From positions 2,612-66,611 of the forward strand of contig QHZE01000451.1 of the NCBI GenBank assembly GCA_003225335.1: a DNA stretch of 64,000 nucleotides, given 5' to 3'. This stretch comes from Acidobacteriota bacterium. GTDB lineage: Bacteria > Acidobacteriota > UBA6911. Positions 4,985 to 21,424 of the stretch are shown here, in pieces. Position 1 is the first letter of the stretch, and every line of letters begins with the position of its first letter. The notes under the pieces were generated by a model, which saw only the letters and a list, made by a program, of their open reading frames with translations, was not told the origin of the DNA and ran no database searches. The translations under genes and the position numbers were made by a program.

Positions 4985-5075
4985 TGTCACGGGCGTCTCG
5001 CCCGTGACTGACTGGGCGGTATGAGGCTCACTCGCTATGAATAGCGAGCAGACCTCATACCGCCGAGGGTAGGGA
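4985..5075. repeat. family F element (CACGGGCGTCTCGCCCGTG hairpin plus TGAGGCTCACTCGCTAT..ATAGCGAG hairpin)
   Basis: Second copy at 55296-55445 in the opposite orientation. Confidence 0.7.
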
Positions 5076-5225
5076 ACCGCCGATGCACGCCGATTAACGC
5101 CGATGGAAACATCCGCGTCCATCGGCGTTCATCGGCGGTTTCAAACTCTCAGACTGCCCTTCTCTCAACCATGGCTCTCGTACGAAACTTGACCAGTTTG
5201 TGAACTTCGTAGCTGGCTAGTCTGG

Positions 5226-5896: not shown

Positions 5897-6175
5897 CTAT
5901 GCCATTCGTCCGGTGCCGTCCGTTCTCAGCATTTCAGCAAGGAACGATGAGCAGTTGGTCAGATTCACCTGGCGCTCCAAGAGGTTCCTGAGGAGCCTTA
6001 GCCCGTCACGGTCCGCAAACGAGACTTCACCAATGTCCAGTGTGAGTTTGTGGCCGCCTTGGAAACGCCTTTCACAGTATGTCGCAACCTCCGTAACCCA
6101 CGGACCAATCAAATCACCTTCCAGTTTCACAACGACTCGGTCGCCCGAAAGGCCGCCTTCTGAGATTCTCACCAT
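5897..6175 (-). CDS. STAS-domain protein (anti-sigma-factor antagonist-like)
   Basis: 92 aa. Pattern VVVKLEGDLIGPW...LTLDIGEVSFADRDGLRLL is typical of SpoIIAA/STAS. Lies immediately upstream of the ECF sigma gene on the same strand. The frame stays open upstream of the annotated ATG, so the start is uncertain. Confidence 0.5.
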   Translation of the reverse strand: MVRISEGGLSGDRVVVKLEGDLIGPWVTEVATYCERRFQGGHKLTLDIGEVSFADRDGLRLLRNLLERQVNLTNCSSFLAEMLRTDGTGRMA

Positions 6176-6379
6176 CTGCTGTTTCCCACTCTTTCCACTT
6201 GGTAATGGAACAGATGCAACTGGCCTGCCAATCCGGCGTCATCGGCTCTACTCCTCTCGTAACCCACAAGTCTAGAGAGATTTGATCGAAGCAAGGCAAC
6301 ACGCGACCCGTCGGCGGGCCCTCGAAATTTCGTGGAAAGGAGACTCGTCCATCCACGCGTGAGGCCAAAACTACGATAT

Positions 6380-6438: not shown

Positions 6439-7894
6439 TCACGGCTTTTGACGGGTTACTCGGCGGTGGATGCCGAGTTTCTTCATCCTGCTGCGGAGTG
6501 TGTTGGGGTGGAGGTTGAGAATCTTTGCGGCGCCTCTGGGGCCTTCGATGACCCACGCTGATTTCTCGAGGACTGAAAGAATGTGGTGGCGCTCGACATC
6601 CTCGAGGGTGCCGGAACCTGGTGCGCTTGAGGCGTGGTCCGCCTGCACGGCGACCTCCTGGGCCACGGCATGGGTCCCAGGGGGTTCCGCGGACATGGCC
6701 GAAGGGGAAAGGGACGGGGAAGCGGAAAGTGTGGGAAATAGCACACGTTCGAGCTTGAGAACCGGTCCGGTGGACAATACTGCCGCGCGCTGCAAAACAT
6801 TTTGGAGCTCTCGAATATTGCCGGGCCAGGAATAACTGGCGAGGAGGTCCATAGTGTCCTGAGCAACCTTGTCAATCTTCTTTCCGATCCGCTTCGCAAA
6901 ACGGGTCAGGAAAAACGTCACGAGTTGGGGAATGTCCGACTGGCGTTCCCGAAGCGGCGGGATCGTGAGAGGAAACACGTTAAGGCGGTAGTACAGGTCG
7001 GCACGGAGCTGCCCTGCCGCGACCGCCTGGGCAAGGTCGCGATTGCTGGCAGCGATAATGCGCACATCCACTCGAAGGGTGCGGCTGCTCCCCACGGGCT
7101 CGAATTCCTGTTCTTGCAGGACGCGCAGGAGCTTGACCTGGGTTTCCAGCGGGAGCTCCGAGACTTCGTCCAGAAACAGGGTGCCTCCGTTAGCCAGCTC
7201 GAAACGCCCCGTGCGAGCAGTGATAGCGCCGGTGAAAGCTCCTTTGACGTGACCGAAGAGCTCGCTTTCGACCAGGCCCGCGGATATGGCGCCGCAATTG
7301 ACCTTCACGAGCGGCCGATCTTTCCGGGCGCTGCGGGCATGGATGGCGCGGGCTATAAGCTCTTTGCCGGTTCCTGTTTCGCCGTAGATCAGAACCGTAG
7401 AGTCGGTCGGGGCCACCCTTTCCACCTGACCCAGCAGGTCCAGCAGGGCAGGGCTGCTTCCCACGATCTCTTCGAAGTTGTGCTCGCGCCGGATTTCCTC
7501 CTGCAGGTAGATATTTTCAGCGCGAAGCCGGTTCTTGAGCGTTTCGACCTCTGCGAGCGCTGCGCGAAGCTCCTCTTCGGCCCGGCGCCGGAGGGCGACC
7601 TCCTGCTTCATCTCTGCGTAGAGACGGGCGTTTGTGAGAGAGATGGCGGCTTGAGACGAGAGTATGTGCATGATCCTGATGCGGTCGGCTGTGAAGGCGT
7701 CCGTCGTCAGGTTGTTCTCGAGGTACAGAATCCCCCCGAACTTTCCCTGGTGAACTACCGGCACGCAAAGGATCGATTTGGGCCGCGCCGAGCAGATGTA
7801 GGGGTCCCCCCAAAACCTCTCATCAACCGGGGCATTGCCCAGAACGATGCTCTCTCCGGTTTTGCGAACGTAGTGGACGACGGCCTGAGAAAAA
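6439..7894 (-). CDS. C-terminal part of a giant regulator: GAF (C-terminal half), sigma-54-interaction AAA+ domain and Fis-type HTH. The frame is open upstream of the annotated ATG at 7764 and joins the upstream ORF through a frameshift near 7890-7895.
   Basis: Walker A GETGTGKE, the GAFTGA loop and ESELFGH are all present. The C-terminal HTH reads ..[21 protein letters not shown]. Translating upstream of the ATG gives GAF continuation [29 protein letters not shown].. Confidence 0.8.
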
Positions 7895-10800
7895 AGATCC
7901 GAGGAAGAACCCTCTTTGCGCGCCGGCTTTTTCCAGAGCGATCTTCATGAGTTTGCGCAAGAGATCTTCGAGGACGATTTCGACGGCGATGACGTGGGCA
8001 GCTTTTGAAACGGTAGAAATGTCGAGGGGAGAAGGTTGCGGATCTCTTTCAATCCCGGCAACCGACGGCTCTCCTGGCGATGTCCCGCCGTAGGGTCGGC
8101 CCTGTGTGGCCGCCCGATCTGCCGACGCAGGGGCGCCCCTACGGCCACTTTCGTCTTCGTCTCGATCACACCCTGAACCGGCAGGGAAAGCCGTGAGCTC
8201 CGAGTCGAGCAGGTCCCGTGCCAATAAATTCGGATACTTTTCCTCCAAAGCTTTCACTTTAGCCGCGGCGCCCCACTCCTGGTAAAGACGGCGGGCCCGG
8301 CGAAGGTAGAGCGCAGCGATTTCTTCGTTGCTTTGCTGCAGCCAATATCGGGCATAAAGCTCGTTTGCGATGGCCTCGTTGGGAAGGTTTTGCGTCTCGC
8401 GCGCATACCGAAGCGCTTCCTGGTACGTATCCATGGCCGCGACCTCATGCCCGCAGACACGCTCCAGCTCGGCTCCAAGCAGCAGGGAATAGCAACGGAA
8501 ATTCTCCGGACAATTCTCTGCGAGGAAAGCCAGAGATTTCGCCAGCCGCTGAAGTTCTTGCTCCGAATCCCGGCGTTCCGCATGGCCGGCATGGGAGCAG
8601 CGTGCGGCCAGCGTGACGCCGTAGAGAAAGTCCAGCAGAACCGGCCAGATCGTTCCACCGAGAGAGTGTATTACCTGGCGGGCGTTTCGAGCGTTTTCGT
8701 AGGCCTTCTCGTATTCTTCGAACAGGACACTGAGATGAAGCTTGACCACGTAAAGGAAGGTCATGAAGAAAGGGTTGTTGCTGTAAGCCCGGACATAGGC
8801 ATCCTCGTCAAAGTCCTCGGCGGTAAGTTGGAGCGCGGACGAGGTCAGGCCCTGGAGGGCCCGCGCCCAATTCAGAATGACCTTTTGAGCGTCCACGAAG
8901 CTGTCCATCTTGAGCTTCTTGATCAGTTGCAGGTTCGGCGAATAATCGCGGACAAAGAGGGCCAGGTCCCGGCTGGTGAGGAACGCGGGCCAGGTCTCGG
9001 TGAAGGCCCCGTAGTTTGCGTAAGTGAAATCGCCGGTCTCCAGGCCGCTGCGGCAGGCTTCGCGCGCATGCGGGATGCAAGTCCGCATCGGCCGCCGCCA
9101 GAGGTTGACATGGGCGTTGAATTGCTGATGGACTTTGGCTCGCCGCTTGCGATCGTTGAGGCGTTCATTGACGCTCAACGCAAGCCTCCCGAACCGGTAC
9201 GCAGACTCGTAGTCTCCTCTGACGGGACCCACTGTGATCGCGTGAGTCACATAACCGTACGCGGACTCCTCGATGTTTCCGTGCGTCAGTGAAAGGCGGA
9301 CCATCGTTGCGGAGATAAGGCGGGTGAGAGCCTGATCTCCCAAGATATAGGCAGGCGCCCATAGGGCGGTGAGGATTCCCATCACCAACCGGATCTCCGG
9401 ATCCGCCATCACAGGCAGATCGACCAGGGAATCAATGGTCCGGTTGCCGAGGATGCTCCGGATGCCGTTCAGCTCGGCCTCGAGCGCGGATTCCTTGCCG
9501 GCCTCGGAATCGGGAAACGTAACACCGAAGAGCTCAAGGCCCTCCTTGCCGGCCTGAACGGCGAGAGCGTAGCGAGACATGTTCTCGTACTGGACGACTT
9601 TCAGATTGCAGACCTGAGCCTTGTCCAATCGCGTTCGAGCTCGTTGAAGGATATGGTCGAAGCAGCGCTGCGCCTCGTTGAAATGGCCGCACAGGTACGC
9701 GCATTCGGCAGCCTCAATCTGGAGGTCGAACATGAGCTGATAATCGGAATTCCACGAGTCTTCCGTGAGGAGATCCCTTCCTGCTTTGAGATAGGTCAGG
9801 GCGGCCTCGTAGGCGGTCGAGAACTTCGCCTTCCGGCCGGCGTTCAGGTTCAGCCGCGCCAATTGAAGGCGCTCGGCATCGTCCGTAATCAAACCCGCGC
9901 CGCGGTTCAAGTGGTGGACGATGTCAAAAAGCTTCTCGTCCAGGACGGCGGGATCGGACCGCTCCAGGAGCAGACGGCCGACAGTACCGTGGATGAGCTG
10001 TTTTTCTCCGTCCGGGATCAAGGCGTAGGCCGCTTGCTGAACACGGTCATGCAGAAATGAGTATGCGGGGATGGGATGGGCGACGTCCTCGGACTGCTCT
10101 GGAGACGCATCGTACGACGGTGCAGCCGGCAAGAGCAGCTGCTCATCAAAAACTTGCTGGAGATCGTTTGCGGCCGCGTCGCGTGATTGCTGGCTGACGA
10201 TGGCAAGCGTGGACAGGTCGAAAGGGTTTCCAATGCAAGAGGCAAGCGTCAGGGCGCGCTGAGTCTTGGGCGAGAGGCGCTGGATCTTCCGCGTCATGAG
10301 GTCGATGACGTTGTCCGTCATTGCCGCTCCTACAATGGCATCCATCTGAAAAATCCAGAAGCCGCGGTCGTAGTCGAACTCGAGCAGCCCTTCCTGACGC
10401 AACGCCTTCAAGAACTGCTGCACGAAGAAAGGGTTTCCATCAGTTTTCTGCAGAACCAGACGGGCGAGAGGCTCGGCCTCCTCGAGTTTTCGATGGAGGG
10501 TGTCGCCGATCAGGAGAGTAAGATCTCGAAGTCCCAGCGCATTCAGGAAGAGGCGCTGTATCGGAGCGCCGGCCGATTCCAGCGCGCTTAGCGTTCTCGT
10601 CAACGGATGACTGGCATCGACTTCATTGTCACGGTAGGCGCCCATCAAGAAAAGGTGCCCGATGTCGGAGCTGGTGAGGAGCGGTCTCAGCAGACCCAGT
10701 GTGGCCGCGTCGGCCCATTGCAGGTCGTCCAGAAAAATGACGAGCGGATGGTCCCGGCGCGCCAGTGCCGTGAGCAGGTTTTGGAATACGAGCTGAAATC

Positions 10801-12100
10801 TGTTCTGCGCCTCGATCGGTCCCAACGGGGGCGGCGGTGTCTGCTCGCCCAGGATCAGCGCAATCTCGGGGACCACCTCGGCCACCACGCCGCCGCCGGT
10901 GCTGCCGAGAGCTTCTGAGAGCCGGGCGCGCCAGAGGCTTAGCCGTTGCTCGCTTTCGGTGAGTAACTGCTGAACGAGTGCCCGCAACGCTTGAATCAAG
11001 GCGCCCAAAGGGATGTTGCGCACGACCTGGTCGAACTTCCCGGAAATGAAGTAGCCTTTTTGACGAACGATAGGCTTGTAAAGCTCCTGAATGAGAGACG
11101 TTTTTCCTATCCCGCTGTAACCGGCCACAAGCATCATGGCGGTGGATCCCTCGCAAACGCCTTCGAAGGCCTGAAGCAATTGGGATAACTCCGTCTCTCG
11201 TCCGTACAGTTTCTGGGGAATCAGGAAGCGGTCGGAAACGTCGCGCCGCCCGAGAGTAAACGCGGCGATGGAAGCGCGAGAATTCCACTCCTGCTCGCAG
11301 TGCTGGAGGTCTTCGTTGAGTCCGAGCGCGCTCTGGTAGCGCTCCTCGGCAGTTTTGGCGAGCAGTTTCATGACAATCTGAGAAAGGGGTTCGGGGATCG
11401 TCGCGTCAAGATGGCTGGGGGAGGGAGGCGTCTTGGCGATGTGACCGTGAATGATCTCCAGGGTGTCGCCCGACGTGAAGGGAGGCGCTCCGGTCAGGAA
11501 CTCGTACAGGATGACGCCGAGGGAGTAGAAATCAGTGCGATAGTCAATCGCGCGGTTCATGCGGCCGGTCTGTTCCGGCGAAATATACGGCAGCATGCCC
11601 CTCATGAGATGGACAGGCATCAGTGCCTGGAAATCGGCGGAGGACCTGGCCGCCAGACCCAGATCGGCGAGAGTCACCTCCCCCGTGGCAGGGAATACGA
11701 GAATGCCCTTGGGGTTGAGGCCTCTGTGTGCGACCTTGCGCCGATGCAATTCGGCCAGGATAGTGCAAAGCTGAACGGCAATTCTGAAAAAGAAGGCGAG
11801 ACTCGGTCGCCGGCTGCCGCGCAAGGAGTGGAGCGGCGCCCCGCCGCGATCTTCGAGCACAAGACAGCAGCGCCCATTCATCCGAAACATCTCGTACGGA
11901 CGCAGGACACCCGCAACGGAGAGGTCCTTCAGGATCTGGAACTCCCTCTCGAGCAACTCGATGTCGGTGTGGTTTGGCGGTTGCCGGTGCGGGACCTTCA
12001 GGAGGACCGGCCTTTTGTCCTTCAGGCTCCGGCCGCGCTGGAGAGCGTGCCAGTCATTACGCGTGAGCTCCTCGATGAGCTCGTAACCAGGAATCGTCAA
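7823..12100 (-). CDS. N-terminal part of the same regulator: Ser/Thr protein kinase domain, STAND/AAA NTPase (P-loop GYSGIGKTS), TPR-like helical region and the start of GAF. Probable TTG start at 12100; the ORF track start is 12166.
   Basis: Kinase motifs: [10 protein letters not shown] (catalytic loop), DLGLA (DFG-like) and PYISPEQ (APE-like). AAGGAGG sits 6 nt upstream of TTG at 12100. The frame terminates at 7823-7825, in a different frame from the downstream sigma-54 ORF. Confidence 0.8.
7890..7895 (-). other. A6/T6 homopolymer: most probable site of the single-base frameshift splitting the kinase-sigma54 regulator gene
   Basis: The frameshift must lie between the frame-A stop (about 7938) and the frame-B stop (7823). 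This is the only homopolymer of 6 or more in that interval. A 1-nt change here fuses ..[10 protein letters not shown] to [12 protein letters not shown].. Confidence 0.55.
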
Positions 12101-12236
12101 GAAAATCCTCCTTGGACGTCGCCTGCCGGATAGAAACCCTAAATGTGTGAGCGGAGTATGCCACAAGAGGAGTCCCTTGCAAAGAAGAGACGGTTTGACC
12201 GGGAGGAACCCTGGAGACTACATTGACAGAGAAAAA

Positions 12237-12568: not shown

Positions 12569-13222
12569 TCATCGTGGAAGCGCCGGTAAGGAAGTCGCTC
12601 GGGGTTCTGAATCATTCTCTTCGACCCGGTGTGCCGTCACGACAAAACGCTTTGGAGCATCCCCGATGAAGTAGAACGGGTAACAGGTGACAAGCGTGAT
12701 TTCCGGCTTTGGAGAAGGCGCCAGAACCCTGATGTCTGTGGGCTCGACAATCTGAATCTTGTCCACGCGATACTGGTAGGTTCCCTTGAGCGTGGTCACC
12801 CGGATAAGGTCGTTTCGGGATATTCCTTTCAGTGGCCGGAACATACCGTCCCGATGCCCGGCAATCGCAAAATTCCCCTGCTGCCAGGGGAGGGCCGTTC
12901 CTTCTATGTGTCCTGCCGCCCGGTTGAGCGTCCATTCATTGGTTCCTCGCAGGACCATTACGGAGAGATCAATTGCAGGGATTTCCAGCCGGCCTATAAC
13001 TGAAGGGATTTCTAGAATGTCCTTCGCGGGACTGTTCTCGCCGTTGAGAGTTCCCCGGAAAGTCCACCTGTCATAGATCTGGAACACCTTCGAATGGGCA
13101 AGCATGACACCATAAGCGGCTAGAGCCGCCAGGCCTATCACCATGCAAAGACGTTCCGCTGTCCGCAGAATTGCGTGGAAAGTTTCCTTCGGCCAGGTCT
13201 TAAGATGAATTCGGATCTTCAT
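12569..13222 (-). CDS. sortase-family transpeptidase
   Basis: N-terminal TM helix. Catalytic His in AIAGHRDG, Cys in ITLVTCYPF, Arg in KRFVVTAHR. Confidence 0.8.
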   Translation of the reverse strand: MKIRIHLKTWPKETFHAILRTAERLCMVIGLAALAAYGVMLAHSKVFQIYDRWTFRGTLNGENSPAKDILEIPSVIGRLEIPAIDLSVMVLRGTNEWTLNRAAGHIEGTALPWQQGNFAIAGHRDGMFRPLKGISRNDLIRVTTLKGTYQYRVDKIQIVEPTDIRVLAPSPKPEITLVTCYPFYFIGDAPKRFVVTAHRVEENDSEPRATSLPALPR

Positions 13223-13393
13223 AGTCGTTGCGCATCAGCCGTACGACGTTGCTCCCTATGTGGCCAAAAAGTCTCTGGGCTTGGCGGCCACCAAGTAGGT
13301 CCAGGTCGTCTCCAGCACAGCTCGGTGTGGTCACAGCTTGCGACGAAGGAGCAGGGCCAGGGCCGGCTTTCCGCTCCCTCGCGCATGAAGCTT

Positions 13394-14155
13394 TTAGGAG
13401 GACCAATTCCTCAGTGTGCGGAAACTGTAAGCCGCTCCCAACGCCAGGAGACCGACGAGCCCCAAGAGTGGATAGGGGCTGCCTGTTTTAGGCAGTGATG
13501 CAGACTCTTGAGTCGTCGCAGACTCTTGAACCGTTGCCGGCGGTTGTGCGGTGTCCAGCGTGCTCTGAACCGGATCCGTGCTCGGCTGGATAGCAGCGCT
13601 TTCAGGCTCAGGGGACTCGACGGGATCCTTTTCTGGGGCGGAGGGCTCGTTGACCGGCTGAACGGAAGCCGTTTCGGCCGCGGTGCTGGGGACTTCCTTC
13701 ATCTTCGTATCGGAAATGCTGGGCGCCTCCTCCTTGACCTGGGCGGCAATCTGGGCGGTTTCGCTCTTTGAGTAGACGAACTCTTGGCCGAAAGTGTCCC
13801 CCGGATAGAACCACGCCTTTAATGCCCGCGGGGAGCCCTTGGGTGTTTCCCAGAGCGCGAATTGATTGTCCCCCGCGGGTTTGAGTCGACGGTTGGGTAA
13901 AGCCAGGATCGTTGCATGAATCTGCGTTTCGTCTTCGTTCAAGACCTGCACGATGTTCCGGTCGGATACAGAATCAACCAGTTTGAAAACATACTTCCCT
14001 GGGGGCAAGGTAGCCCCGGGAACGCGCAGGGGTTGATTCGTCGTCACAACGGTCTTCTTGTTCCTCGTGTCTGCTGAAGCATAGTGTGCGTTAACGATGA
14101 TACCTGCAATGAGTATGATGCAGGCTACGATCGTGAGAACTTTCTGTCGGTTCAT
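13394..14155 (-). CDS. LPXTG-anchored secreted protein; candidate substrate of the adjacent sortase
   Basis: Start ATG 14155 behind RBS GGAGG; the ORF track start at 14257 is an artifact. Signal/TM segment MNRQKVLTIVACIILIAGIIVNA. A Pro/Ser/Thr/Glu-rich linker. C-terminal sorting signal SLPKTGSPYPLLGLVGLLALGAAYSFRTLRN. Confidence 0.75.
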   Translation of the reverse strand: MNRQKVLTIVACIILIAGIIVNAHYASADTRNKKTVVTTNQPLRVPGATLPPGKYVFKLVDSVSDRNIVQVLNEDETQIHATILALPNRRLKPAGDNQFALWETPKGSPRALKAWFYPGDTFGQEFVYSKSETAQIAAQVKEEAPSISDTKMKEVPSTAAETASVQPVNEPSAPEKDPVESPEPESAAIQPSTDPVQSTLDTAQPPATVQESATTQESASLPKTGSPYPLLGLVGLLALGAAYSFRTLRNWSS

Positions 14156-14252
14156 CTGATACCTCCGTTTTCCAATGGGAGCCGATGCGTTGTGGGAGGA
14201 TTGTCTACAGCGGCCTTGAATTACAAATGTTTTGACAATCTGTAGTATCCGT

Positions 14253-14268
14253 TGCAACAGCCGTGCCA
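14253..14268 (-). promoter_or_regulatory. sigma-54 (RpoN) -24/-12 promoter, TGGCACG-N4-TTGCA, reading toward the LPXTG-protein/sortase operon
   Basis: The minus-strand sequence TGGCACGGCTGTTGCA matches the consensus TGGCACG-N4-TTGCW perfectly. The GG-to-GC spacing is canonical. The predicted TSS lies about 85-90 nt upstream of ATG 14155. Confidence 0.7.
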
Positions 14269-20563: not shown

Positions 20564-21424
20564 TCAAAAGAGGACCATTGCCAGGCGCTTTCGATATTCC
20601 TCCGCAAGACCGCTGCGCTCGCCGGCAAGAGCGAACACGGTGAGCATCGCTTTTCTGGCCGCCTCCTCCCTGAAGTTCCTGTTGCGCGTCACTACAAACA
20701 GAAACTCTTCCAGAGCTCCGCGATAGTCGCCACCGGCTGCAAGGCAGCAGCCGTGAGCATACCGCGCCTCCAGATTCTCGGGTTCTGCCACCGCGCGGGT
20801 CGCGCAGGCCTCCAATCCTCCATTCTGGCCGCAAACGGTGTGGAACTCGAGGGCCTGTTTCAGAGGCTCCGCCTGTTCCTGCTGCGGAGAATCGGACGGG
20901 ATTCGATCCCACAGGGATGCGGCCTCTGCGTCGCCGGCGGCAGCCAAAATCTTTCCGAGCTCTAACAACGCGCCGCCGTGAGAGGGGTCCGCTCGAAGAG
21001 CTTCTTCGAATGCGCGACGTGCTTCCTGCGCCTGGCCGAGGTCCAGGCAAGCTAATCCTTCTGCATACTTCCGGTCGGCGTCGCTGGGACAGTGACGGCG
21101 CAAGAAGTGCCGCGCTTCACCCTCGGAAATCGCGCCCATGAACTCGTCGACCACCGCGCCCCCCTTGAAAACCTTCACGTTTGGAATGCTGCGGATACCG
21201 AAACCTTGCGCGATCTCCGGATTCTCTTCCGTGTTGACCTTGGCCAGGAGAAAATCACCCTTGAATTCCTCGGCCAGTCTTTCCAGCACCGGCCCGAGAA
21301 TCCGGCAGGGACCGCACCACGGCGCCCAGAAATCTACAACCACCGGGCGGCGAAAAGACTCATCAATTACCGACTGATCAAAGTCCTGAATTCCTACATC
21401 CTTTACGTGAACCGCTGTTGCCAC
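20564..21424 (-). CDS. thioredoxin-domain plus TPR-like protein (YbbN/CnoX-like co-chaperone)
   Basis: WCGPC active site followed by a helical TPR-like C-terminal half. The likely start is GTG 21424 behind GGGAGGA; the ORF track start is 21472. Confidence 0.75.
   Translation of the reverse strand: MATAVHVKDVGIQDFDQSVIDESFRRPVVVDFWAPWCGPCRILGPVLERLAEEFKGDFLLAKVNTEENPEIAQGFGIRSIPNVKVFKGGAVVDEFMGAISEGEARHFLRRHCPSDADRKYAEGLACLDLGQAQEARRAFEEALRADPSHGGALLELGKILAAAGDAEAASLWDRIPSDSPQQEQAEPLKQALEFHTVCGQNGGLEACATRAVAEPENLEARYAHGCCLAAGGDYRGALEEFLFVVTRNRNFREEAARKAMLTVFALAGERSGLAEEYRKRLAMVLF

Follow-up and report, generated by a model that had tools for sequence, protein, structure and literature searches.

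The locus examined here raises the question of why the gene for a very large regulator of a soil bacterium of the Acidobacteriota lies in two reading frames. A sequence-only reading had placed the break at an A6/T6 homopolymer and had offered three causes for it: a sequencing error, a pseudogene or a phase-variable switch. The window, which is the whole stretch of DNA analyzed, comprises 64,000 nucleotides of contig QHZE01000451.1. The comparison with orthologues that the sequence-only reading had called for did reveal intact, single-frame alleles; their T6 tract is identical to that of the window, and it is a segment of 95 nt that is missing from the window instead.

Organization of the disrupted gene

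A frame break is indeed present in the regulator gene. The minus-strand open reading frame (ORF) 12166..7823 terminates at a TGA codon (7825-7823), and the coding sequence resumes in the +1 frame, which stays open from 7937 down to 6439. The description of a giant regulator broken into two frames inside its GAF domain thus holds, although the cause given for it, a 1-nt indel, has to be replaced by a 95-nt deletion. In the NCBI annotation, produced by an automated pipeline, both ORFs of this 5.8-kb regulator gene (DMG10_23055 and DMG10_23050) appear as "hypothetical proteins"; they should be treated as one disrupted gene. Its features are as follows:

7823..12166, minus strand: upstream ORF of the broken regulator (NCBI DMG10_23055 / PYU99860.1, 1447 aa), encoding the two domains listed next, a long TPR-like region and the start of GAF (first helix and beta1), then a 25-aa out-of-frame tail
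~11333-12025, minus strand: kinase-like domain (Pkinase, 3.9e-23)
~10646-11212, minus strand: AAA_16/STAND NTPase (AAA_16, 9.2e-45)
7901..7972, minus strand: N-terminal remnant of GAF in frame A (24 residues), with helix alpha1 and the start of strand beta1
7901..7902, minus strand: deletion junction (..TTCTTCCT|CGGATC..), where 95 nt present in all relatives are absent
7826..7900, minus strand: out-of-frame tail of 25 codons, followed by the stop at 7825-7823
7890..7895, minus strand: T6 run (plus-strand A6), read in the true downstream frame as part of CTT TTT TCT (Leu-Phe-Ser)
6439..7902, minus strand: frame-B continuation (Sigma54_activat, 1.1e-71; GAF profile 50-133 only)
~7636-7896, minus strand: C-terminal two thirds of GAF, then a coiled-coil linker, within frame B
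~6967-7467, minus strand: sigma54-interaction AAA+ domain with GAFTGA (Sigma54_activat, E 1.1e-71)
~6742-6951, minus strand: AAA lid, within frame B
~6475-6609, minus strand: HTH_8 (E 5e-8)
6439..7671, minus strand: downstream ORF (NCBI DMG10_23050 / PYU99928.1, 410 aa, ATG 7671), spanning the last GAF helix, the linker, AAA+ and HTH

The true start of the upstream ORF is likely TTG 12100, which gives a product of 1425 aa. Its kinase domain is probably a pseudokinase, because HRN/HRG replaces the catalytic HRD. Judged from its domains, the intact gene is a single giant sigma54-dependent activator of ~1,918 aa, composed of a pseudokinase, a STAND/AAA_16 NTPase, a TPR-like region, GAF, AAA+ and HTH. 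With GAFTGA and HTH_8 present, the broken gene retains the AAA+/HTH features of a sigma54 activator (bacterial enhancer-binding protein), but in the window this half and the upstream ORF are read in different frames, so that a translatable protein with its regulatory domain is absent. Frame B has no in-frame start codon ahead of GTG 7764, and the first in-frame start for the C-terminal half lies 59 nt past the stop. No convincing Shine-Dalgarno sequence precedes GTG 7764, nor was a convincing ribosome-binding site found for ATG 7671, where an AGGA lies just 2 nt before the ATG.

A 95-nucleotide deletion accounts for the frame change

Relative to an intact allele, P0001 (98% identical, 1918 aa), the broken gene lacks 95 nt, mapped to the base; the gap is exact against the intact allele at 98-99.6% identity, and T6 is the same in both. 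Since 95 nt amount to 31 codons plus 2 nt, the reading frame shifts. In the intact sequence the segment runs GAGAGAGCAGAATGG...GGAACGAT. The microhomology at the junction is 1 nt (T), so 7903|7902 is an equally valid position for the break. All 12 close-relative contigs that reach the site (~99-99.9% identical) continue into an extra stretch of 95 bases between window positions 7902 and 7901, and 10 of them are contiguous and intact across the segment (L001-L006, L108, L116, L117 and L118). In protein terms, ~31-32 residues between "..AQRGFFL" and the next GAF half, found in every homologue, are lost between the frames, and the two GAF halves do not adjoin. As in a deletion pseudogene or split gene, the lesion can be recognized as an indel by comparison with full-length intact orthologues.

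The deletion allele was seen in this record only, an NCBI Acidobacteria metagenome-assembled genome (MAG) with the loci DMG10_23055 and DMG10_23050. A 26-mer spanning the junction had no matches in metagenome contigs, an exact look-up of the 1425-aa product returned no record, and a query with the 177-aa tail found the tail peptide in no other protein. The sister MAG DMG09 is without the deletion, its 410-aa ORF lying on an intact contig. A scan of genome contigs did not return the species of the window itself, the best match being 57-67% identical. It is virtually certain that the sequence carries this deletion with exactly the limits given, that no other record shares it, and that the segment described below is what it removes.

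No direct repeats of at least 10 nt occur at the breakpoints, where only the single nucleotide of microhomology was found. A hairpin spanning the deleted segment was considered and rejected (DNA fold of the intact allele, z = -0.79). Apart from the deletion, a single SNP within the gene, at position 8125, is private to the window, and the sequence gives no sign of long-standing decay of the gene. A cluster of private non-synonymous SNPs near the deletion had appeared with six relatives, where four of six private SNPs fell within 225 nt and the ratio of non-synonymous to synonymous changes was 5:1 against 3:10 (Fisher P = 0.04). It dissolved when closer relatives were added: the changes are sub-lineage alleles common to L097 and L109, and only 8125 is private.

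Loss of the GAF core

In an AlphaFold model of the intact GAF domain (pLDDT 89.8), strands beta1, beta2 and beta3 occupy residues 39-46, 49-57 and 64-70, respectively. Residues 44-74 of this model are lost with the deletion, and with them the last part of beta1, the whole of strands beta2 and beta3 and a short helix. The Pfam GAF profile (133 positions) matches the intact allele over 2-133; in the window, frame A accounts for positions ~2-25 and frame B for 50-133, which leaves ~26 positions (31 residues) without a counterpart. A complete six-stranded GAF sheet, taken as a full-length profile match, is therefore not found in the window.

Any single-base removal within 7826-7937 yields a continuous ORF of 1908 codons, and in this sense it is correct that a 1-nt indel restores a continuous protein. 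The GAF domain of that protein is nonetheless incomplete, matching the profile over 52-133 only, and the spacing between ENAGA and LYLEN, which is 96-109 aa in 83 of 83 homologues, is 68 in the window repaired by 1 nt. Because the end of beta1, both following strands and the short helix are lost, a frame-restoring event could not rebuild the sensor; such a repair restores the ORF and not the GAF domain, and from the sequence and the model the sensor would stay unfoldable.

The A6/T6 tract and recoding

The tract reported at 7890-7895 exists, as T6 on the coding strand, but it is not the only homopolymer in the frame overlap, where a 5-mer also occurs at 7928-7932. It sits 6-12 nt downstream of the 7902|7901 junction, and the change of frame does not come from it but is explained exactly by the deletion, which ends 6 nt upstream of T6. 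Its sequence, CTTTTTTC (Leu-Phe-Ser), is identical, length included, in all 10 contiguous intact alleles, among which no variation of one nucleotide in either direction was seen. The only variant in tract length, a T3 in L097, is in frame and belongs to a dubious patch beside an N-gap.

A switch in which slipped-strand mispairing at A6/T6 toggles the regulator and the operon downstream had been suggested by the position of a 6-nt homopolymer inside the overlap, where a 1-nt change formally rejoins the ORFs. Such a switch is very improbable and effectively refuted already: the deletion fully explains the frame shift, the tract is invariant in the intact alleles, and the product of a slip would be without three GAF strands. 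The 64 kb contain 40 runs of at least six, roughly one every 1.6 kb, and the chance of finding one within the 112-nt overlap is ~7%. Six nucleotides is also short for a contingency tract. Variation of the tract by one unit, a frame shift caused by the tract and a functional "ON" protein, as expected of a phase-variable locus, are all lacking, and on sequence grounds the tract is an innocent bystander. Reads with A5 or A7, proposed as a test, would be uninformative because the frame change comes from the 95-nt deletion.

T-rich runs can promote slippage, and a +1 shift anywhere within 7826-7937 would join the frames, so that programmed +1 ribosomal frameshifting or transcriptional slippage might be thought to yield a full-length protein. 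This is the least probable reading of all. A single frame is used in 120 of 120 homologues among the matches listed and in all near-identical alleles, a two-frame organization is thus not conserved in orthologues, no conserved shifty stop or stimulator was found, and the fused product would still be without 31 core GAF residues.

Real allele or assembly error

A sequencing or assembly error and a pseudogene, both named in the sequence-only reading, survive as live explanations, with slippage removed as the cause of the break. The analysis leans to a real deletion allele over a local misassembly, and we infer that the deletion exists in cells and not only in the assembly, with the regulatory consequences set out below. 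The whole of this explanation, including a real strain-level loss-of-function allele, is considered probable, with a good deal of doubt attached. The window has no Ns and, over ~15.6 kb compared with relatives, no private 1-nt indels, and no direct repeat is able to collapse a de Bruijn graph; the short-read IDBA-UD assembly of the source pipeline, with its subsequent automated error correction (PMC6784897), is counted on this side as well. Counting against a real allele, searches located the junction and the tail peptide in no other sequence, and the gene, with one private SNP besides the deletion, gives no sign of prolonged decay. Moreover, L097 and L109, which belong to the same sub-lineage and share the K/V/W alleles of the window, contain the 95-nt segment.

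It is quite possible, if short of an even chance, that the strain has an intact gene and that the 95 nt were lost during assembly or automated correction of a strain-heterogeneous spot that is hard to assemble. The deletion is unique to this record among 12 related contigs, the segment being present in the nearest relatives, L097 and L109. At this very place the scaffold of L097 is interrupted by an N10 gap, beyond which the sequence appears chimeric; L109 breaks off at the same nucleotide as the L097 gap, and the contigs L098 and L110 stop after 36 and 32 nt of the segment. Each of these four assemblies is thus interrupted within the 95-nt stretch, by a contig end or by an N-gap, so the locus is hard to assemble and a local error in the MAG is plausible. 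Four of ~17-20 contig ends in the 5.76-kb gene falling within this stretch has a binomial P of ~1.5e-4 under a uniform model, but contig ends cluster elsewhere in the gene too (e.g. ~8640 and ~7750), which inflates this "hot spot" statistic, and the ends at +32, +36 and +92 nt are not at the deletion breakpoints. The bins of the source study underwent automated correction of "scaffolding error" (PMC6784897), and "..._curated" stands in the titles of other entries from this WGS series. On the other side, de Bruijn assemblers require reads that contain the junction, neither a repeat at the breakpoints nor a spanning hairpin is available to mislead them, and the rest of the contig is clean.

The sequence of L097 to the right of its N-gap had been considered as a divergent "allele C" cassette and was set aside, being found only in that scaffold. 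It begins QELPQYAQPRFVRVLD, which we take to be an acyl-CoA-synthetase-type motif, and because of this resemblance the patch is probably a chimeric contig end.

A second, independent disrupted allele was recovered in two assemblies (L117 and L118), where a 1-nt deletion at the window-equivalent position ~8333 produces a GTGA-coupled two-gene arrangement; loss or fission of the gene therefore does occur in the population, which speaks for a real allele over an artefact. The second allele also bears on a sub-case of the real deletion, compatible with it, in which the gene has undergone functional fission and a re-initiated C-terminal fragment of 410-441 aa acts as a signal-independent activator similar to NorR lacking its GAF domain. 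In NorR, AAA+ is repressed by GAF, and a protein without its GAF domain is constitutively active (PMC2941729). Here AAA+ with GAFTGA and HTH_8 are intact, a sigma54-like promoter lies just downstream, and the L117/L118 allele splits the gene by a GTGA stop/start overlap that leaves a complete GAF-AAA+-HTH ORF. Such fission is nevertheless improbable for the window, given the distance from the stop to the first start, the poor initiation signals at GTG 7764 and ATG 7671, the single occurrence of the allele, and negative control by GAF that is assumed. A broader proposal is a shade less probable still: that separate events are repeatedly splitting or inactivating the regulator in a natural population of soil Acidobacteria, that uncoupling of its output from the pseudokinase-STAND-TPR sensor, or silencing, would be selectively favored, and that the AAA+-HTH fragment would be an unregulated activator of the STAS and ECF-sigma genes.

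For the favored real deletion, the following course is proposed. Illegitimate end-joining or slippage with 1 nt of microhomology may have removed 95 bp from the GAF core. Translation would then run out of frame for 25 codons and stop at 7823, and the output half (the rest of GAF, AAA+ and HTH) would be stranded in the +1 frame without a start or ribosome-binding site of its own. The allele would be null or, at best, weakly expressed and unregulated, and sigma54-dependent activation of the targets of the regulator would be lost in the deletion strain.

Candidate targets and neighboring genes

The likely targets of the regulator are the adjacent STAS/ECF-sigma pair and, possibly, an LPKTG-protein/sortase operon:

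6215..6230, minus strand: sigma54 promoter-like site (TGGCAGGCCAGTTGCA), differing from TGGCAC-N5-TTGCW by one mismatch and followed 40 nt downstream by the STAS gene
6175..5897, minus strand: STAS_2 anti-sigma-antagonist-like protein, 92 aa
5783..5226, minus strand: ECF sigma-70 factor, 185 aa
14268-14253, minus strand: perfect sigma54 promoter consensus
14156..13395, minus strand: 253-aa protein ending in LPKTG plus a hydrophobic tail
13144..12569, minus strand: sortase

From its sequence, the site at 6215..6230 is a candidate target of the regulator. A sigma54 promoter downstream of distant orthologues was found at 5 of 25 loci only, which is suggestive only. Rfam and tRNA scans of the window gave no matches.

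Relation to known systems

The C-terminal 560 aa have the same GAF, sigma54 AAA+ (GAFTGA) and HTH_8 architecture as the GAF-containing enhancer-binding proteins NorR, NifA and FhlA, and their best match among solved structures is a Nif-specific regulatory protein (9qq6_C, E 1.5e-88), with ZraR, NtrC and FleQ next in order. In contrast to that type, GAF is here preceded by ~1,350 aa of pseudokinase, STAND and TPR-like sequence, and the lesion does not take the domain out cleanly: it removes an internal piece, shifts the frame and in addition interrupts translation before the output half. The N-terminal half, with AAA_16 (E 9e-45), helical repeats and a kinase-like domain, resembles STAND NTPases with TPR-like arms (MalT, AfsR and PknK-type proteins), whose outputs are LuxR or SARP DNA-binding domains whereas the output here is a sigma54 activator module. 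To our knowledge no member with this domain architecture has been characterized, and a literature search on the architecture found none.

The likeness to the contingency loci of Neisseria, Haemophilus and Campylobacter (poly-G/poly-A) is limited to a coding homopolymer near a frame change; the tract here has only 6 nt and does not vary among 10 intact alleles, and the frame changes at another place. Ordinary deletion pseudogenes or split genes in draft genomes and MAGs share with this locus a private internal deletion of a length not divisible by three, near-identical relatives in which the orthologue is intact, and annotation as two adjacent "hypothetical proteins". Nothing essential separates the present gene from these, the only special point being the second frameshift allele of L117/L118.

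Significance

The gene either is broken in an ordinary way or has been locally misassembled, and it does not act as a genetic on/off switch. The main value of the analysis is as a correction: the "phase-variable switch" that had been flagged is absent, and the record holds either a dead allele or a 95-bp assembly error. Homopolymer slippage deduced from a two-frame overlap is unsafe without comparison of orthologues, and it was domain arithmetic, the 32 missing residues, that exposed the true lesion. If the deletion is real, the strain would be without a sigma54 activator whose likely targets are the STAS/ECF-sigma pair and the sortase/LPKTG-protein operon, and the second frameshift allele would hint that part of the population can do without the regulator.

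Reading frames of the regulator

The giant sigma54 activator gene on the minus strand is broken into two reading frames, as the sequence-only reading had claimed. An ORF opening at 12166, upstream of the TTG at 12100 used as start in the orthologues, is ended by TGA at 7825-7823, and the +1 frame is open from 7937 onward. The two ORFs are identical to the NCBI entries PYU99860.1 (DMG10_23055, 1447 aa) and PYU99928.1 (DMG10_23050, 410 aa), respectively, which share one 91,131-nt contig of an Acidobacteria MAG; DMG08 and DMG09 (GCA_003224555.1, QHZF01) are its sister MAGs.

Features of the regulator gene
Upstream ORF, minus strand: protein-kinase-like domain (Pkinase; Pfam E 3.9e-23)
Upstream ORF, minus strand: AAA_16/STAND NTPase (E 9.2e-45)
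Upstream ORF, ending at 7823, minus strand: long helical region, then the beginning of GAF
7937 to 6439, minus strand: open +1 frame with the rest of GAF, AAA+, AAA lid and HTH_8
7890-7895, minus strand: T6 tract (A6 on the plus strand)

The GAF portion in the +1 frame covers Pfam profile positions 50-133 only, and the sigma54-interaction AAA+ domain (E 1.1e-71) carries GAFTGA. In the window the kinase-like domain (about 11333-12025) has HRG in place of the catalytic HRD motif, and most homologues have either HRN or HRG; the family's N-terminal "kinase" is therefore probably a pseudokinase.

The T6 tract, to which the break had been attributed, is present, and removal of a single base from it yields a continuous ORF of 1908 codons. 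It is not the sole homopolymer of the overlap, since a 5-mer lies at 7928-7932, and it is statistically unremarkable because the window holds 40 runs of at least 6 nt.

A missing 95-nt segment

A search with the 1-nt-repaired protein as query recovered thousands of single-frame homologues sharing the regulator architecture, mainly from Acidobacteriota and other soil phyla. P0001, an intact homologue of 1918 aa encoded on the related contig L001, is 98% identical to the repaired protein and has intervening residues where, in the window, GFFL joins directly to (S)DLFSQ. The DNA of L001 and the window is 99.5-99.6% identical on either side of one gap of exactly 95 nt (L001 14199/14200 to 14293/14294), missing between window 7902 and 7901, with one shared T as junction microhomology. 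As 95 nt equal 31 codons plus 2 nt, this gap accounts for the observed +1 relation of the frames. The intact gene has the identical T6 (CTT TTT TCT, Leu-Phe-Ser), which in the window lies 6 nt downstream of the junction, so the break is caused by the gap and not by the tract.

The identical segment and T6 occur in all five further metagenome contigs chosen by a shared 28-mer downstream of the junction. When contigs retrieved via neighbouring genes are included, the segment is entered by 12 of the 12 related contigs that reach window 7902, ten of them (L001-L006, L108, L116, L117 and L118) being contiguous and intact across it. The ENAGA-LYLEN spacing, examined in 120 family members, is 96-109 residues in all 83 with both anchors findable, versus 68 in the repaired window. 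Segment and spacing together indicate that presence is ancestral and that the window carries a deletion. Comparison with orthologues, a check proposed by the sequence-only reading, argues against the tract as the lesion. An apparent private non-synonymous SNP cluster around the deletion vanished after closer relatives were added.

Effect on the GAF domain

AlphaFold2, given an 18-sequence alignment, modelled the intact GAF region with a mean pLDDT of 89.8; in the model a helix (20-35) is followed by strands 39-46, 49-57 and 64-70 and a helix at 71-74. The deletion corresponds to residues 44-74, so that beta1 loses its end while beta2, beta3 and the short helix are missing altogether. Pfam GAF coverage is 2-133 in the intact fragment versus 52-133 in the repaired one; the proposed 1-nt indel thus restores one ORF but not a complete GAF, and slippage at the tract, even if it restored the frame, would not rebuild the sensor domain. 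The idea of a phase-variable switch was rejected, given that T6 is invariant in the ten contiguous intact contigs and is not the lesion, and that its "ON" state would not function. Programmed frameshifting was ruled out because all orthologues are single-frame.

Real allele or assembly artefact

We lean slightly towards the deletion being a real allele, and a local assembly artefact is a serious, if less probable, possibility. In favour of an artefact, searches found the junction in no further public contig and no second protein with the out-of-frame tail, and the two contigs of the window's sub-lineage, L097 and L109, which share its Lys, Val and Trp alleles, hold the segment. An N10 scaffold gap interrupts L097 exactly here, with apparently chimeric sequence behind it; L109 terminates at the very nucleotide that borders this gap on the left, and L098 and L110 stop 36 and 32 nt inside the segment, respectively. 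Of the roughly 17-20 contig ends in this gene, four fall within 95 nt out of 5757 (P about 1.5e-4 assuming uniform ends), although ends cluster at other gene positions too. De Bruijn assembly, however, requires reads holding the junction, which counts towards a real allele, and no repeat or hairpin able to collapse the graph was found at the deleted segment or its breakpoints. The window contig is also clean: it contains zero Ns, and about 15.6 kb of comparison with relatives showed no 1-nt indel private to it. An independent disrupted allele exists, moreover, in L117 and L118. We infer that the record is a product of the Angelo grassland study, which used per-sample Illumina assembly by IDBA-UD and automatic correction of bins for scaffolding errors (PMC6784897).

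In L117 (8564) and L118, two assemblies possibly of the same reads, one A is absent from CAGCAAAGC, giving CAGCAAGC (window-equivalent about 8333). The gene is thereby split into an ORF of 1281 aa (pseudokinase-STAND-TPR) and a second one (GAF-AAA+-HTH) beginning at a GTGA stop/start overlap, an arrangement that looks like gene fission.

Beyond its N10 gap, the closest relative, L097 (19642-19750; ERZ28573583 scaffold_214), contains about 50 nt encoding QELPQYAQPRFVRVLD, presumably acyl-CoA-synthetase-like and probably a chimeric contig end. Its tract beside the gap is T3 in place of T6.

Consequences and candidate targets

Should the deletion be real, a protein of the 1,400 N-terminal aa, extended by 25 aa of nonsense, may still be produced. 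The first in-frame starts for the AAA+/HTH half are GTG 7764, 59 nt beyond the stop, and ATG 7671; no convincing ribosome-binding site was found before either. A null activator would be the simplest outcome. A fragment made by some re-initiation would have no functional GAF and, by analogy with the signal-independent NorR-deltaGAF (PMC2941729), could be signal-independent.

Candidate targets of the regulator
6230-6215, minus strand: sigma54-like site, 40 nt upstream of the STAS gene
14268-14253, minus strand: perfect sigma54 promoter consensus, TGGCAC-N5-TTGC (TGGCACGGCTGTTGCA)

The STAS gene is followed by an ECF sigma factor gene, and downstream of TGGCACGGCTGTTGCA come genes for an LPKTG protein and a sortase and then that of the regulator. 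Within 12569-14268 on the minus strand, the LPKTG protein (253 aa, with a hydrophobic tail after LPKTG) and the sortase thus form a pair of enzyme and single substrate in an Acidobacterium, which sigma54 may control along with the pair's own activator. A sigma54-like site lies 150-250 nt downstream of the regulator in 5 of 25 distant orthologous loci. Another match, TGGCACGGGACCTGCT (one mismatch; 8208-8223, minus strand), about 300 nt upstream of the deletion within the regulator CDS, is probably due to chance.

Directly downstream of the ECF sigma gene, at 5012-5222, long imperfect inverted repeats with arms of 27-41 nt and repeated CGCCGATG units form a cluster that may be a REP/MITE-like insertion. 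L006 lacks about 178 nt of it (5045-5222), and several related contigs end there. Other length differences, all apparently intergenic, are a block at 20609-20840 (about 230 nt versus 100 nt, compared with L001), 8 nt at 13258-13260 between the LPKTG gene and the sortase (versus L097), and one G at 12204, upstream of the regulator start, common to five relatives.

The regulator gene shows a commonplace disruption that reflects either pseudogene formation by deletion or a local error of assembly, in keeping with two of the origins offered by the sequence-only reading. The chief value of the case is a corrected annotation and a lesson in method, and the family to which the gene belongs is one of uncharacterised yet widespread giant sigma54 activators.
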